From Alphaproteobacteria bacterium (GTDB taxonomy: Bacteria > Pseudomonadota > Alphaproteobacteria > Bin95), in assembly GCA_965205265.1 (NCBI GenBank), contig CBDBGH010000003.1:1216001-1280000 (forward strand): a DNA stretch of 64,000 nt, given 5' to 3'. Made by a program: the position numbers and the translations under genes. Below the pieces are notes generated by a model. The model was not told the origin of the DNA. It did not search any database and saw only the letters and a program-made list of their open reading frames with translations. Positions 41,862-54,261 of this stretch are shown in pieces (positions within the stretch are counted from its first letter, which is position 1; each line of letters starts with the position of its first letter).

Positions 41862-42758
41862 CTAACCGCCGGTGCGGGCCCGGATGAAGGCCGCCGCCTC
41901 GTCGATGCCCTCGCCCGCGCGGTCGAGCAGGCGGTCGAACCAGTGCCAGACATGGATCATCTCGTCCGCCACGGTGAGCTGCACCTCGACGCCCGCCCGC
42001 CGGGCCGCTGCGGCCAGCGACACCGAATCGTCCAGCAGCACTTCCTCGCTGCCGACCTGGACCAGCAGCGGCGGCAGGCCCTCAAGATCGGCGTAGAGCG
42101 GCGACGCCCAAGGATGGCGGCGGTCCGTGTCGTCGCCGAGATAGACGCCCGTCCAGCGCTCGATCTGGTCCTTCTTCACCATCGGGTCCGAGTCGGCCTT
42201 GGTCGCGTAGGAGCCGGCTTCCAGCGTCATGTCGGTCCAGGGAGAGATGCAGAGCCCGCCGGCCGGCATGGGCAGCCCGTCGTCGCGCGCCTTTATGAGC
42301 GCGGCGACCGTCAGGCCGCCGCCCGCCGAGTCGCCGCCGATGACGGCGCGGGCCGGGTCGATGCCGCTCTCCAGCAGGCCCTGCCACGCGGCCGCGCCGT
42401 CCTCGACGGCGGCGGGAAAGGGATGCTCGGGCGCGAGGCGATAGTTCGCCGAAAAGGCATGCACGCCGGCGCCGGCCGCCAGCGCCGCGACCATGTGCCG
42501 GTGCGAGCGCGTGGAGCCCAGCACATAGCCGCCGCCGTGGAAGTAGAGCAGCGCCCGGGCCGGGTCCGCGCCCTCGGGCCGCAGCCATTCGCCCGGAACG
42601 CCGCCGAGGGAGCCGGGCTCGCGGGAAATGCCGTCCGGCAGCGGGAATATCTCGACCGCGCGGTCGTATTCCTCCCGGAGGTCGGCGATGGCGGCGGTCG
42701 CGCCGTCCGGCCGTTCGGCAAGCTTCACCCGCAAGGCGGAGATCGAACGGTCTTTCAT
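41862..42758 (-). CDS. HSL-family esterase
   Basis: HGGG, GDSAGG, EVLLDD, MIHVW. Confidence 0.9.
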   Translation of the reverse strand: MKDRSISALRVKLAERPDGATAAIADLREEYDRAVEIFPLPDGISREPGSLGGVPGEWLRPEGADPARALLYFHGGGYVLGSTRSHRHMVAALAAGAGVHAFSANYRLAPEHPFPAAVEDGAAAWQGLLESGIDPARAVIGGDSAGGGLTVAALIKARDDGLPMPAGGLCISPWTDMTLEAGSYATKADSDPMVKKDQIERWTGVYLGDDTDRRHPWASPLYADLEGLPPLLVQVGSEEVLLDDSVSLAAAARRAGVEVQLTVADEMIHVWHWFDRLLDRAGEGIDEAAAFIRARTGG

Positions 42759-50271: not shown

Positions 50272-50880
50272 ATGACTGAGTTGAATCGCTGGCTTGCGGA
50301 ATGGCAGCAGCCCGGCACCGTTTGGTATATCAAACGCCTTCCCGCGCATTGCATCCTTTCCAGCAGTGAAGGACGGAACGAATGGCTTATGCCGGCGCAC
50401 ATAATGGCGCGGGCATTTCCCGAACTGTATATGGTCAGAGCAGGCCATACCGACATTCGTTTCGACCTGTATGTCGATTCCCATGCGGAGCATCGTGTCG
50501 TTGGAATAGAAGGGATGAAGGGTAAGTTGCGTGGCTCGCCAAGCCGGCGGGTCTGCCTGATGGATTTGACCGGCACGCCTTCCGCGCTTCTGGACCCGGA
50601 GAATGTCGGTGCCATGACGCTGTTTGCGTTTCCGCCGGGCGGGCCGGAGAGCCCGAAATTCGGGACTAGGAGAAATGCGACGGAAGGCCGTGTCTGGATT
50701 ACGCGCACTGGCGACGAGGAGGACATCGTGGAAAATTATGTCGGCCCGGTCGATGGTCGACCTCCGATGACTTGGCGCATCCGGGAGAAGGGCTACGAGA
50801 ATATGGATGCCTTTCTGATGTCAATGGCCCGTTTGCACGCCGAGGAAAACGATGTCGAGAATGAGCTTCAGTTTGAATGA
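50272..50880 (+). CDS. Stand-alone EcoRII N-terminal (effector-binding, B3-like) domain protein
   Basis: WYIKRL, FPEL, VDSH, LDPENVGAMTLFAF and VWI...EEDIVE resemble EcoRII-N as recalled; no catalytic C-terminal domain. Confidence 0.65.
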   Translation: MTELNRWLAEWQQPGTVWYIKRLPAHCILSSSEGRNEWLMPAHIMARAFPELYMVRAGHTDIRFDLYVDSHAEHRVVGIEGMKGKLRGSPSRRVCLMDLTGTPSALLDPENVGAMTLFAFPPGGPESPKFGTRRNATEGRVWITRTGDEEDIVENYVGPVDGRPPMTWRIREKGYENMDAFLMSMARLHAEENDVENELQFE

Positions 50881-51770
50881 ACTTTAGGCAGCGTGAGTCT
50901 TTACCCTTTGAACACATACTCGCGGTGGTATTGGAGAAATTGTCGGTGCGGTCGGTTTTGCGGCAAATTCGGGAGCAGAAGCTGTCGGTCATTATTGAAC
51001 AATCGCAGCACATTTGTAGGGATTGATCTCTCGACAAGAAGCAGGCCGTAATCGTCGTCAACCGACATAAGACCCCGGTCGAACATCCAGTGCATCGTGC
51101 CGCTGAGCGCGAGGCCGTTGCGCAGACTGTCGGGGCCATTGTCTTTGACTGGACGAATATGCGCGGCTTGCACCTCGGACCGCCCGCCGCCGTTTATCAG
51201 CCGGATGCCGCTGAATGCGCAGGTATCGGCATACGCTGTCTTGACAGTCGATGAGAAGGCTCGGTCGCGAAAGGGCCGCTGTGACATCTGGGCGACAATT
51301 TCCCGGTGTATCTCGAACGGTTCCTGTTCCTCGTGAAACCCGTCGAAAGGAGATATTGAAGGAAGTTCGATAACACCGGAAAATCCGACGTTCAAAATTC
51401 GATAAAAGTCGTCGTCATCTATATTTCGTACAGACCGGCCGAATTGGCCTTTGTTCGTAGAACCATCAAGCTTCTGCAATGTGCGTTCATAGTAGAGACT
51501 TCCTTCACGAAATGGCACTGGACGATAAAATTCAAGGAATTTTTCAACATAGGCATAATAGTGGTACGGAAGTACATCATCTTCTTCGATATGGGACAGC
51601 TTTGCCACTGCAAAGTAGCATTGTCTTCCACCAGACCGGCGCGGTTCATAGTAAATGATCCAGTCCCCGATGGCGCTTTGCACAACCCTGAGGTAAGTCC
51701 GAGGAAAATGGTAACGAACTTCCAGCAAGTCGTCATAAACTGAGTCTATTCTTGTAGTTAGAACAACTTT

Positions 51771-51930
51771 GGGCCTTACAAAGATGAGTTGACGGCGTCA
51801 TGCCGCCAGCATCCCTGCGTTTTCACGGATCGCAGGGGTCCGCAAGCCGGAACGCCCCTCCCCGTGCAGCAGCGCCAGTCCCCGACGCCGGATGTTGCTG
51901 CCGGCATTCGCGTCGGCATGGTCCGCATGG
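51771..51930 (-). ncRNA. Putative TnpB omega/reRNA overlapping the tnpB 3' end (5' boundary uncertain)
   Basis: Expected position for TnpB guide RNAs; terminal hairpin TGGCGGC-ATGAC-GCCGTCA ending in GTCAA at 51789. Confidence 0.5.
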
Positions 51931-53054
51931 CCGCAGGCCGTGCACTGGAATTCGGCCCGCGAACGCCGCGAGCCGGCATCGACATGGCCGCAGGCGGCGC
52001 AGGTCCGGCTGGTATGGGCCGGGTCGACCGCGAGCAGCCGTCCCGCCTTGTAGCCGAACATGAAGCGCAGTTCCGCCCATCCCGTGGCCAGGATGACGCG
52101 GTTGAGCCCGGCCTTCTGCCGGACCCGGGCGCCCGGCTCCTCTGTCGTGCCCCGGGCGCTGCGCGTCATGTTCCGGACCCGGAGGTCCTCGACGGCGACG
52201 GTATGGGCGGCGTCGGCGACTGTCCGCGAGACATGGTGGCGCCAGTCGCACCGCATCCCGGAAAGGCGCCGCCTCGTCTTCGCCAGACGGGCGCGGGTGC
52301 GCTCCCGGCGCCCGGAGCCGCGCTTCTGGCGCGCCAGACGCCGGGCAAGGCGCTTCGCCCTCGCCTCCAGCCGCCGCGTATCCGGGGCATGGAACAGGCG
52401 GGCTTCCGGCCCCGGACCGCTCGCCGCCACCTGGCCAGCGTTCATGTCCACCCCGATGACGCTGTCGTCATCCTCGTGGACCGCCGGCGCCGGGACCCGG
52501 TAGCAGACCACGGCGTACCACTTGCCGGCCTCGCGCTTCAGCACCGCCGAGACCGGCTCGCCATCCCCATGCGGGTTGCCGCCCCGCCGGCGGACCGCAA
52601 GCGGGCCGAAACCCGGAAGGCGCAGGCAGGCCGCGCCGGACCCGCAGTCCGCGCCGGGCCGGGCCCGGTCCTCCAGCCTCACCCCCGAGACGAAGGAGAG
52701 GCTGTCGAACCGCCGGCGGGACCGGAACCGGGGAAAACCCGGCTTCTGGCCCGCCTTCACCCGCCGGAAGAAGCCCTTCATCGCCTCGTCCAGGCGCTTC
52801 AGCGTCCCGCGCTGCACGGCGACCGGAACGGCCGCCATCTCGGGGTCCTCCCGGCGGCACACCGTCAGGCTCTTCGCCTGGTCGATATAGGAGAGCGACC
52901 GCCCGGCCAGATGCCAGGCGTCGCAGCGTTCCTGAAGGGCGGCGTTGTACAACTGCCGCTGCGCCTCCAGAACCCGCTCCAGACGCCGCCAAACGGACCG
53001 GCGGCCCGGCAGAAGCCGGAATACCACCTGACGGTGCGTGAAGACCTCGCTCAT
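51798..53054 (-). CDS. tnpB: RNA-guided endonuclease TnpB
   Basis: QLYNAALQER, KPGFPRFR, RuvC-I GVDMN, RuvC-II VEDL, Zn finger CAACGH/CTACGH, RuvC-III HADANA. Confidence 0.93.
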   Translation of the reverse strand: MSEVFTHRQVVFRLLPGRRSVWRRLERVLEAQRQLYNAALQERCDAWHLAGRSLSYIDQAKSLTVCRREDPEMAAVPVAVQRGTLKRLDEAMKGFFRRVKAGQKPGFPRFRSRRRFDSLSFVSGVRLEDRARPGADCGSGAACLRLPGFGPLAVRRRGGNPHGDGEPVSAVLKREAGKWYAVVCYRVPAPAVHEDDDSVIGVDMNAGQVAASGPGPEARLFHAPDTRRLEARAKRLARRLARQKRGSGRRERTRARLAKTRRRLSGMRCDWRHHVSRTVADAAHTVAVEDLRVRNMTRSARGTTEEPGARVRQKAGLNRVILATGWAELRFMFGYKAGRLLAVDPAHTSRTCAACGHVDAGSRRSRAEFQCTACGHADHADANAGSNIRRRGLALLHGEGRSGLRTPAIRENAGMLAA

Positions 53055-53325
53055 GCGGCCGAACTGGATACGATACACGGCAATGTCAACTTACCTTTGT
53101 AAGCCCCACAACTTTCGGCACAGCGCAGGGCCTCTTGCCATATGATTTTGTTATTCAATTACAACAAAAAATCATATCAGACAACACAGGTCAGCTTTGG
53201 ACCATGCGCCGGTAACCCGCCTTTCGGAGACGCATGACAATTTCCGTGGGCTTGAATCAATGATTTTCAACGGAGGCAAAGCGTCGGGTCGGTCCCGGAC
53301 GGCAGGAGTATGCGCCGATTGCCGG

Positions 53326-54261
53326 TTATCCCTCCGGCGCCTTTTCCTGCGCCGTCGCATCCCATTCGAATTTCGACGCCCGGGCCAGCCGTTCGACGTC
53401 CACCACGCCGGTCAGGCGGCGGCCCTCGACGATCCAGGTCGGGTAGCGCCGGATGTCCTGGACCGTGCAGGCGGCGGTGAGGGGGCCGTTCGGGCCCGAG
53501 GGGGCGCATTCGGTATAGGGCAGCCGTTTGGCGGAGGCGGTGAAGAGCGCCTTCTGCTCCTGGCAGGCCCGGCACCAGTAGGCGCCGTAGAAGCGCGCGC
53601 CGCTTTCCTGCAAATGGGCCGCAAGCGCCTTGAGATAGGGGTCCTCCGGGCCGGCGGCGGGATCGAAGAGGCCGCTGAAATGCAGGTGAAGGCCGAGAAC
53701 CAGCACGAGGGCGGCGCTGACCGGGAACAACAGGGTCCGGCGCCACCCCCGCTCCGGCGGTTGCGAGGGGCGGCGCAGGACCGCGAGCAGGAACAGCAGG
53801 TTCATCAGCGCGAAGGAGGCAAGGCAGTATTCGCAGACCGCCCCGATCTCGAAGACCGATACCAGGGTGAGGAACCAGCTCACCCCGAAGCCGACGCAGG
53901 CGACGAGAAACAGAGGCCCCCATGCCGACGGCCGGCTGCGCAGGCGCCACGCCAGACCGGCAAGAAGCGCGTAGGTAAGCAGGCCCCAGAGCGCCATCGG
54001 CAGGCCGAGCAGGGTGGACCACCGGCTCGACTGCACGATGTCGCACTCCGACTCCGCCCCGCACCAGGCCGGATGCTCGCCGAACCAGGCGACCAGAGTC
54101 AGATAGCCGGTGAGCAGGACGCCGGCTGCCGCCAGGACGAGAATCCCGTTGTCGAGGGACAGTATCGCGCGCGCCGGCGCCCGGGAGGCGGCTGCGGCCG
54201 GCTTCGGGGCAGCCGCGGCCCGGCCGCGGCGGGCGCTCGGTCGTTTGCGCTTTCTGGGCAT
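53326..54261 (-). CDS. VKOR-thioredoxin fusion (disulfide bond formation)
   Basis: C..C loop, SRWS, CEYC in the TM domain; FYGAYWCRACQEQK and YPTW in the Trx-like domain. Confidence 0.88.
   Translation of the reverse strand: MPRKRKRPSARRGRAAAAPKPAAAASRAPARAILSLDNGILVLAAAGVLLTGYLTLVAWFGEHPAWCGAESECDIVQSSRWSTLLGLPMALWGLLTYALLAGLAWRLRSRPSAWGPLFLVACVGFGVSWFLTLVSVFEIGAVCEYCLASFALMNLLFLLAVLRRPSQPPERGWRRTLLFPVSAALVLVLGLHLHFSGLFDPAAGPEDPYLKALAAHLQESGARFYGAYWCRACQEQKALFTASAKRLPYTECAPSGPNGPLTAACTVQDIRRYPTWIVEGRRLTGVVDVERLARASKFEWDATAQEKAPEG

Follow-up and report, generated by a model that had tools for sequence, protein, structure and literature searches.

Genes and features at the locus

The DNA analysed here, called the window throughout, is a stretch of 64,000 nucleotides from contig CBDBGH010000003.1 of the Alphaproteobacteria bacterium assembly GCA_965205265.1 (positions 1,216,001 to 1,280,000). 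It contains a 1337-bp element (window 51771-53107) in which tnpB, on the minus strand, is the sole long open reading frame (ORF), as seen from the ORF list and by reading the window directly. At each end of the element is a 23-bp terminal inverted repeat (TIR), the two agreeing at 20 of 23 positions when recomputed; outside them lies a perfect 8-bp direct repeat that has the form of a target-site duplication (TSD). We confirmed by recomputation all coordinates, the TIRs and the repeat given in an earlier reading made from the letters alone (hereafter the sequence-only reading), which had proposed a non-autonomous element moved by a DDE transposase. The evidence below points to a tnpB-carrying cassette that is probably mobilised by a transposase of the IS1595 family. 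The features of the element are as follows.

51763..51770, no strand: TSD on the right-end side (in tnpB sense), ACAACTTT on the plus strand and AAAGTTGT in tnpB sense
51771..51793, minus strand: right-end TIR, 23 bp, starting 4 nt past the tnpB stop codon
51771..51888, minus strand: predicted conserved ωRNA-like structured RNA of ~118 nt, from a 17-element alignment, RNAalifold and pair counts
51798..53078, minus strand: tnpB, 426 aa from a GTG start, from Pfam, NCBIfam, alignment and structure matches
53085..53107, minus strand: left-end TIR, 23 bp, upstream of tnpB
53108..53115, no strand: TSD on the left-end side, the second copy of ACAACTTT (repeats recomputed)

The element does not encode a DDE_Tnp_IS1595 transposase of its own, tnpB being its only ORF, and it is therefore a non-autonomous derivative (a cassette) rather than an insertion sequence (IS) in the strict sense. 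Its 8-bp A/T-rich TSD is a feature of the IS1595 family, and its IS-type TIRs, TSD, passenger gene, lack of a transposase and presence in several copies are those of mobile insertion cassettes, or transporter IS. We infer that the cassette is mobilised in trans. The two ends differ systematically at TIR position 4, where, in related loci such as L018, L035, L064 and L069, GGGG stands at the tnpB-upstream end and GGGA at the downstream one (GGGC in the element of the window), which means that the left and right ends are not equivalent.

Copies of the element in the same genome

The window's genome (5.70 Mb in 3 contigs, 98.98% complete, 68% GC) was found to hold seven full copies of the tnpB element and one truncated copy. 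All seven full copies are 1337 bp long and differ from one another by at most 1 nt in pairwise comparison, indicating that the cassette was recently active; judged from these copies, it is probably active now. Six of the seven are flanked by perfect 8-bp repeats, all different and each present on both sides, which read in tnpB orientation AAAGTTGT (window), TTCTACGA, AAACGTTC, AAAGCAGA, AAAGGAAA and TTCGAGGT. Because the repeats differ among copies, they are true TSDs from staggered cutting and not element sequence. Their mean GC content is ~35%, compared with 68% for the genome. Further copies with the same ends and different 8-bp TSDs, which the sequence-only reading had named as support for its proposal, were thus present. 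The truncated copy (L008; G000:C3:4849555 onward) has kept the left TIR and ~560 bp, and lies ~6 kb from the full copy L007.

Related cassettes in other genomes

Close relatives of the window TnpB were scarce in isolate genomes and common in metagenome-assembled genomes (MAGs). A single-protein locus search returned distant Streptomyces and Acholeplasma relatives only, whereas an alignment-based scan found closer ones. In G016, another species of the genus, homologues with 55-78% identity have the same type of TIR and TSDs ATAATTCC and TTTTTCAT. We scanned 54 external loci whose tnpB was full-length and whose flanks could be used, requiring TIRs with at least 14 of 22 matching positions and an 8-bp repeat directly outside them, and found TIRs with a perfect 8-bp TSD in 16 loci and with a one-mismatch TSD in another 11, of which four were discounted as GC-rich chance pairs and seven are credible. 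When a 19-nt motif of the predicted RNA region was used to scan genome contigs, four further perfect sites were gained, including two in Caldilineaceae; the motif also matched in Pirellulaceae and Permianibacter, among loci in which no TIR pair was found. In a metagenome scan, 42 full-length loci with flanks were recovered, mostly distant (30-40% identity), and two of these had TIRs with a TSD, one of them of a different TIR type.

All delimited elements are 1153-1683 bp long and contain only tnpB, leaving no room for a transposase, and no IS1595 transposase was found within 4 kb of the tnpB loci L018-L104. Relatives with this tnpB-only TIR/TSD architecture occur in Alphaproteobacteria, Rhodothermota and Chloroflexota, with one gammaproteobacterial member that has TIRs only, and the homologues concerned span 34-78% identity and several phyla. 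For a phylogeny, rows with one stop-free high-scoring segment pair of at least 330 residues were kept (42 loci plus the window, 43 rows) and a quick maximum-likelihood (ML) tree was rooted at its midpoint. All rows with TIRs and a TSD fell into one clade of 34 rows with a support of 99 in the Shimodaira-Hasegawa-like approximate likelihood ratio test (SH-aLRT), covering Thalassobaculaceae, Paracoccaceae, a gammaproteobacterium and Rhodothermota/Bacteroidota. The other nine rows (Actinomycetota, Methylobacterium and one Paracoccus) are without such ends, and a Resolvase was not found beside tnpB in five outgroup genomes. Closest homologues lacking these TIRs and TSDs, an outcome that the sequence-only reading had considered damaging to its proposal, were not what we found: relatives with the TIR/TSD architecture exist and group together in the TnpB tree.

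Many of the cassette-bearing genomes are MAGs from a few source series and often contain several copies, with more than 10 loci in one Paracoccaceae MAG (L026-L104, L224-L262). Such numbers suggest that some lineages have gone through bursts of activity.

A candidate transposase partner

Searching the genome with the left TIR and allowing mismatches returned the tnpB copies, about 20 short pairs resembling miniature inverted-repeat transposable elements (MITEs) and one 2840-bp element (G000:C3:1919671-1922510; L009:1001-3840). The latter is single-copy, has perfect 23-bp TIRs and its own 8-bp TSD, TCATGTTT, and encodes a 332-aa transposase with the Pfam domains DDE_Tnp_IS1595 (E=1.3e-41) and Zn_ribbon_IS1595, which NCBIfam classifies as 'IS1595 family transposase' (204.7 bits, cut-off 75). 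Compared with the tnpB element, its TIRs match 20 of 23 positions of the right end and 19 of 23 of the left, and TIR positions 8-23 match the right end at 15 of 16. A transposase-bearing IS with related ends, the other kind of element that the sequence-only reading had named as support, was accordingly present, and of the two DDE families that it had considered (IS1595 or IS256), the Pfam and NCBIfam matches of this element bear out IS1595. The 2840-bp element may be the actual partner of the cassette, judged from the similarity of the TIRs. It carries as passengers a 277-aa putative lipoprotein (weak TbpB_B_D match, E=2.6e-4, below the cut-off) and a 161-aa ORF, and it adjoins a terminase small-subunit gene and an IS4-like DDE_Tnp_1 transposase, a neighbourhood that looks like a prophage or mobile region.

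The same genome encodes at least seven full-length IS1595-type transposases in several groups. The others share ~53-57% identity (four copies at 57%, one more on C3 and one on C1). The ends of the IS1595-type elements of the genome all begin GGGG-TTA, and in the four-copy group the TIR at the left end is shorter and in a different register. This GGGG-TTA start of the window element is also common to IS1595 elements of four other genomes. All five cassette-bearing genomes tested were found to hold IS1595 transposases elsewhere, with 48-74% identity to the candidate partner, and the IS1595 element ends in those genomes begin GGGG/GGGA-ATTATA. Three TIR classes are common to transposase-bearing IS1595 elements and tnpB cassettes, matching at 19-21 of 23-24 positions within a class and at 13-15 between classes.

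Perfect 8-bp TSDs were also present in 11 of 15 MITE-like pairs with related TIRs, showing that transposase-less elements with such ends have moved in this genome. There are ~15-20 of these elements with IS1595-type TIRs on G000:C3, 192-248 bp long (one of 586 bp), for example at 42319-42552 (L010), 293197-293410, 980248-980495, 1205672-1205919 and 5413311-5413544. One TSD (TCATGTTT or its complement) is common to five of them and the 2840-bp element, which suggests a repeated target sequence or a strong hotspot. A Y1_Tnp domain (PF01797) was not found in the 98.98% complete genome, while six of 14 control genomes were positive; this search did not include the IS607-type serine TnpA.

The TnpB protein

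The tnpB product matches Pfam OrfB_IS605 and Cas12f1-like_TNB as well as the NCBIfam model guided_TnpB ('RNA-guided endonuclease TnpB family protein'; 181.9 bits, cut-off 100), and scores far under the cut-offs of NCBIfam IS200_TnpB (120 vs 425) and IS607_TnpB (79 vs 350). Residues 15-402 align to the ISDra2 TnpB structures 8h1j and 8exa. An alignment of the window protein with 25 homologues (26 sequences) showed D211, E297, C360, C363, C379 and C382 to be invariant and D389 to be at least 90% conserved, in agreement with the earlier description of an intact RuvC D/E/D triad and zinc finger. D211, E297 and D389 presumably correspond to the catalytic D191, E278 and D361 of ISDra2. Homologues align only from about residue 8-15, and for this reason the ATG at 53054 may be the true start of tnpB. 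To judge from this conservation, TnpB appears to have been kept catalytically intact through a long cross-phylum history in such cassettes, and tnpB, whose predicted RNA scaffold (below) also pairs with the right TIR, would be no passive passenger.

A predicted RNA scaffold that includes the right TIR

The predicted RNA overlaps the 3′ end of tnpB and extends to the last base of the element. Its helices, all on the minus strand, were mapped from the alignment.

51888-51884 with 51876-51872: helix
51866-51862 with 51828-51824: helix
51858-51857 with 51836-51835: helix
51853-51848 with 51842-51837: helix
51817-51813 with 51784-51780: terminal helix, pairing with the inside of the right TIR

For this prediction the last 230 nt of 17 elements were aligned, RNAalifold gave nested helices, pairs were counted on the five 3′ helices, and the partners were slid by 1-3 columns as a control. 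Pairs were formed in 95.0% of cells (33-47% when slid), compensatory two-sided changes occurred in 11 of 21 pairs (2-5 when slid) and the covariation score was 0.41 (0.04-0.08 when slid); none of 500 shuffles reached the observed values. Four of the five pairs of the terminal helix covary, and the right TIR is therefore under two constraints at once. Across the 17 elements, the DNA of the RNA region is far more conserved than the divergence of the protein predicts. It includes an invariant CCGTGAA ~45 nt from the element end, which, as read from the alignment, lies past the stop codon in the two most distant members, so that its conservation does not come from coding. Rfam returned no family at threshold, with LAGLIDADG-2 (29.7 bits vs 94.9) and R1162 antisense RNA as sub-threshold chance matches, and a scan of 51650-53250 for sigma-70-like promoters found no site. 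If the predicted structure is correct, tnpB and this RNA would form a complete TnpB-ωRNA module.

In four loci of one Paracoccaceae MAG (L067, L074, L052 and L101) the inverted repeat reaches ~45-60 nt, and the left end holds an inverted copy of the final part of the scaffold, including the CCGTGAAA motif.

An orientation-specific G beside the TSD

The base directly next to the TSD on the tnpB-upstream side (position -1) was compared among 27 insertions with perfect TSDs (6 in the window's genome, 16 and 4 in other genomes, and L022).

53116..53116, minus strand: G in tnpB sense, the 5′ neighbour of the TSD on the side upstream of tnpB

Position -1 was G in 26 of the 27 insertions, the lone exception being C, while the mirror position past the right-hand copy of the TSD was C in nine, T in eight, A in five and G in four. 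The bias is tied to the orientation of tnpB (upstream 26 G and no A, other side 9 C and 8 T; Fisher p=1.7e-4). This asymmetry is unexpected because a transposase acting on symmetric TIRs should not sense the direction of tnpB. G was also found at -1 in 6 of 8 sites with a one-mismatch TSD and in 9 of 13 elements having TIRs with an imperfect or absent TSD; two distant metagenomic TIR/TSD elements have A, not G. MITEs of the same genome served as a control, and their 11 perfect TSDs showed no G bias (A5 G4 T1 C1 at -1; T4 C4 at +1). MITEs and cassettes both display a weak symmetric purine...pyrimidine preference around the TSD. A fixed insertion motif of 4-5 nt, a trait of IS200/IS605 and IS607, was not found in the element flanks.

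Two explanations fit the bias: either the transpososome is asymmetric, or insertions persist where G precedes the guide-matched sequence. In the latter case G would be a minimal target-adjacent motif (TAM) and the guide would begin with the first TSD base, a suggestion that we put forward tentatively and at less than even odds.

The interrupted host gene

The element splits codons 3-5 of an HNH endonuclease gene, and the duplicated 8 bp correspond to codon 3, codon 4 and part of codon 5.

53116..53121, minus strand: first two codons of the HNH_2 host gene (GTG start and one further codon), matching the orthologue starts in G016 and G012
50901..51770, minus strand: remainder of the HNH_2 host gene (Pfam HNH_2, E=1.5e-10), within a low-GC islet

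Past the duplicated 8 bp, the reading frame enters a 275-aa HNH_2 ORF. Uninterrupted orthologues were found in two other species of the genus, G016 (79% identity) and G012 (70%), and the reconstructed host N-terminus agrees with their starts at the equivalent position. We therefore confirmed that exact removal of the element restores the host gene with a continuous frame, as had been claimed. With regard to an uninterrupted allele, empty sites exist in these two related species, whereas none was seen for the same strain: contigs of four DNA runs (X3-X6) compared with 51300-53600 contained no joint across the element and no uninterrupted allele. Runs X3 and X5 have the same insertion, and X4 and X6 have copies at other sites.

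Beside the HNH_2 gene lies a convergent 202-aa EcoRII-N ORF (E=3.4e-14; window 50272-51770 and 53116-53250 for the pair), and the HNH_2/EcoRII-N islet has a GC content of 43-59%, compared with 68% for the genome. On sequence grounds, the pair looks like horizontally acquired restriction- or defence-like genes that would have been inactivated by the insertion.

Discussion

We propose, with a probability of about 0.8, that the element belongs to the IS1595 family as a non-autonomous cassette without a transposase, that its sole cargo is a TnpB-ωRNA module and that it is moved in trans by an IS1595-family DDE transposase. At the level of the family, and of a DDE enzyme that acts in trans, the assignment has good support, and in this respect the proposal of the sequence-only reading stood; the DDE-TnpB partnership that it had put forward is already known, and the specific partner is a matter of likelihood. 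Several observations weigh against the proposal or parts of it. One full copy in the window's genome (L007; G000:C3:4855744-4857080) has unlike flanks without a TSD, which together with the nearby truncated copy suggests that copies have rearranged with each other. In many related cassettes no matching TSD accompanies the TIRs, and the TnpB tree comes from a quick search and is rooted at its midpoint only. The TIRs of the 2840-bp element resemble the tnpB ends with 3-4 mismatches and are not identical to them, and a search of G016 with the cassette TIR (up to 3 mismatches) found no transposase-bearing element in this cassette-holding genome. Since G016 yielded no matching autonomous element, the pairing draws mainly on one genome and on similarity of TIR class. 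As to the RNA and its guide, a terminator-like hairpin followed by a T-run at 51808-51781 could stop transcripts short of the flank, and the sequence beside the target shows no conserved TAM of more than one base.

An alternative explanation is that this is an ordinary solo tnpB of the IS200/IS605 (IS1341-type) or IS607 kind, moved by a Y1 or serine TnpA, with incidental end repeats. The TnpB protein is typical of the family, and a small GC-rich hairpin just inside the right end superficially resembles the subterminal hairpins of IS605. This reading is nevertheless extremely improbable, given the 23-bp TIRs in all copies and the different perfect TSDs in six of seven, the failure to find Y1_Tnp in the genome or a fixed 4-5-nt target motif in the flanks, and a protein that scores far under both the IS200_TnpB and the IS607_TnpB cut-offs. 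The abundance of MITEs with related TIRs would allow a one-off nesting, in which an IS605-type tnpB landed in an IS1595-type MITE and the composite was amplified in this genome only. We consider this very improbable as well, because the same architecture is present in homologues of 34-78% identity from several phyla that form one clade, the tnpB stop codon lies just 4 nt from the right TIR, and the terminal RNA helix covaries with the TIR, with compensatory changes in four of five pairs. The short spacing, the covariation of helix and TIR and the clade-wide architecture indicate that cargo and ends are one co-evolving unit.

Within the proposed movement by an IS1595-family transposase, the acting enzyme could be another member of the family in this genome, or one since lost. 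The genome offers at least seven full-length candidates from several groups whose elements all begin GGGG-TTA, the 2840-bp element occurs once, with 3-4 TIR mismatches to the tnpB ends, and G016 holds cassettes with no matching autonomous element found; on the other side, over the inner part of the TIR (positions 8-23) the 2840-bp element agrees with the tnpB right end at 15 of 16 positions, and the four-copy group has a shorter left-end TIR in a different register. Taken together, we judge a different partner to be unlikely, though by no means negligible. The G at position -1 could similarly reflect an asymmetric target preference of the transposase complex, whose TIRs differ at position 4, and be unrelated to TnpB. 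Such a preference is suggested by the weak symmetric purine...pyrimidine pattern in both MITEs and cassettes, which implies that the transposase reads these positions, and by the autonomous element L105, which also has G there, beside its GGGG end. It fits poorly with MITEs of the same genome (A5 G4 T1 C1 at -1), with autonomous IS1595 elements, where G was present at one of six transposase-proximal ends (provisional register), and with a bias that follows the orientation of tnpB (p=1.7e-4). We hold this explanation to be possible and somewhat doubtful.

The proposed cassette would move and persist in the following way. A DDE transposase of the IS1595 family produced at another place in the genome, for which the 2840-bp element at G000:C3:1919671-1922510 would be the best candidate source, would bind both 23-bp TIRs and insert the cassette by staggered cuts 8 bp apart, repair of which would yield the A/T-rich 8-bp TSD; one copy would have knocked out the HNH endonuclease gene in this way. 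The RNA may read across the right end, in which case the guide would be the flanking DNA, that is, the TSD and beyond, and TnpB would cut the empty site, favouring retention or copying of the cassette in the manner of the 'restorative homing' of IS605. We infer the acting transposase, the choice between cut-and-paste and copy-and-paste, the expression and 3′ end of the RNA and the target of TnpB. A broader and more speculative reading, which we offer with low confidence, is that the clade has been long-lived over at least 3-4 phyla as sole cargo of IS1595-type elements, never with a transposase in cis, and that it has been reshaped to suit this way of life, combining a TIR-built helix, a guide of TSD and flank, a one-base G TAM and restorative homing.

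Relation to known systems

Mobile insertion cassettes, or 'transporter IS', with passenger genes, including ones of the IS1595 family, were reportedly described by De Palmenaer et al. in 2004 and Siguier et al. in 2009. The window element resembles them in its IS-family TIRs and TSD, its passenger gene, its lack of a transposase and its presumed movement in trans. It differs from them in that the passenger is a mobile-element nuclease whose predicted guide RNA overlaps the end bound by the transposase. Fanzor is likewise said to have been found in eukaryotic and viral TIR/TSD transposons by Bao and Jurka in 2013. Yoon et al. 2023 (PMC10711439) describe, for the Fanzor RNAs of eukaryotic transposons with TIRs and a TSD, that the TIR is part of the scaffold and that the RNA reads across the TSD. 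Like the elements of Fanzor1 and Fanzor2*, the window element is non-autonomous, is bounded by TIRs and a TSD, encodes nothing but a nuclease of the TnpB family and has a scaffold that would use the TIR. Unlike Fanzor, which belongs to eukaryotes and giant viruses and to other transposon superfamilies, it is bacterial, has an IS1595-type 8-bp TSD and has an RNA structure that is a prediction only.

Among prokaryotic systems, the IS1341 group is similar in size (~1.3 kb), tnpB-only content and multicopy state. It differs in having no TIRs or TSD, subterminal hairpins, a fixed 4-5-nt target and dependence on a Y1 TnpA, according to PMC4810608 and PMC13565253. The same two sources describe IS200/IS605 and IS607 elements as having neither TIRs nor TSDs, consistent with what the sequence-only reading had stated of TnpB elements associated with Y1 and serine transposases, and A/T-rich 8-bp repeats are described for IS1595-family members (PMC12561309). 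Altae-Tran et al. 2023 (PNAS, PMC10691335) report six DDE-associated TnpB branches (DDE-1 to DDE-6) with inverted terminal repeats, as well as solo TnpBs mobilised in trans. The DDE-TnpB partnership is therefore not unprecedented, and the general idea of a DDE-linked solo TnpB moved in trans is already published. As in their DDE branches, a prokaryotic TnpB lies here in an inverted-repeat transposon with the 3′ end of tnpB near one transposon end, and as in their solo TnpBs, the ends resemble those of transposase-bearing elements, which implies trans mobilisation. Unlike the DDE branches, in which the DDE gene is found beside tnpB, none was present in the element or within 4 kb at the loci examined. 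Of the DDE families, the main text of that paper names only IS630 and does not include IS1595, and a 2026 review (PMC13565253) lists ISL2, IS630 and IS1031 as DDE partners and calls the TnpB-DDE association rare and its benefit unclear. Our literature search, which did not extend to the supplements of PMC10691335 (where this clade may be listed), turned up no account of an IS1595-TnpB element. What goes beyond the published record that we located is the IS1595 partner family, how broad and how old the clade is, an RNA helix built into the TIR and a G tied to the orientation of tnpB.

TnpB, from which Cas12 descends, is a compact enzyme for genome editing, and its natural role is understood only for IS605 and IS607, in connection with scarless excision. 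Why a DDE transposon of the cut-and-paste type keeps TnpB is a question that this genome could address, as it would offer a live system with seven near-identical cassettes, a candidate IS1595 partner, empty sites in sister species, a TIR-embedded RNA and a G as TAM prediction. For genome annotation, the findings mean that an element with tnpB alone is not necessarily an IS200/IS605 one. If the proposed mechanism is true, 'restorative homing' would extend to a bacterial TIR/TSD DDE transposon, a benefit that current reviews doubt.

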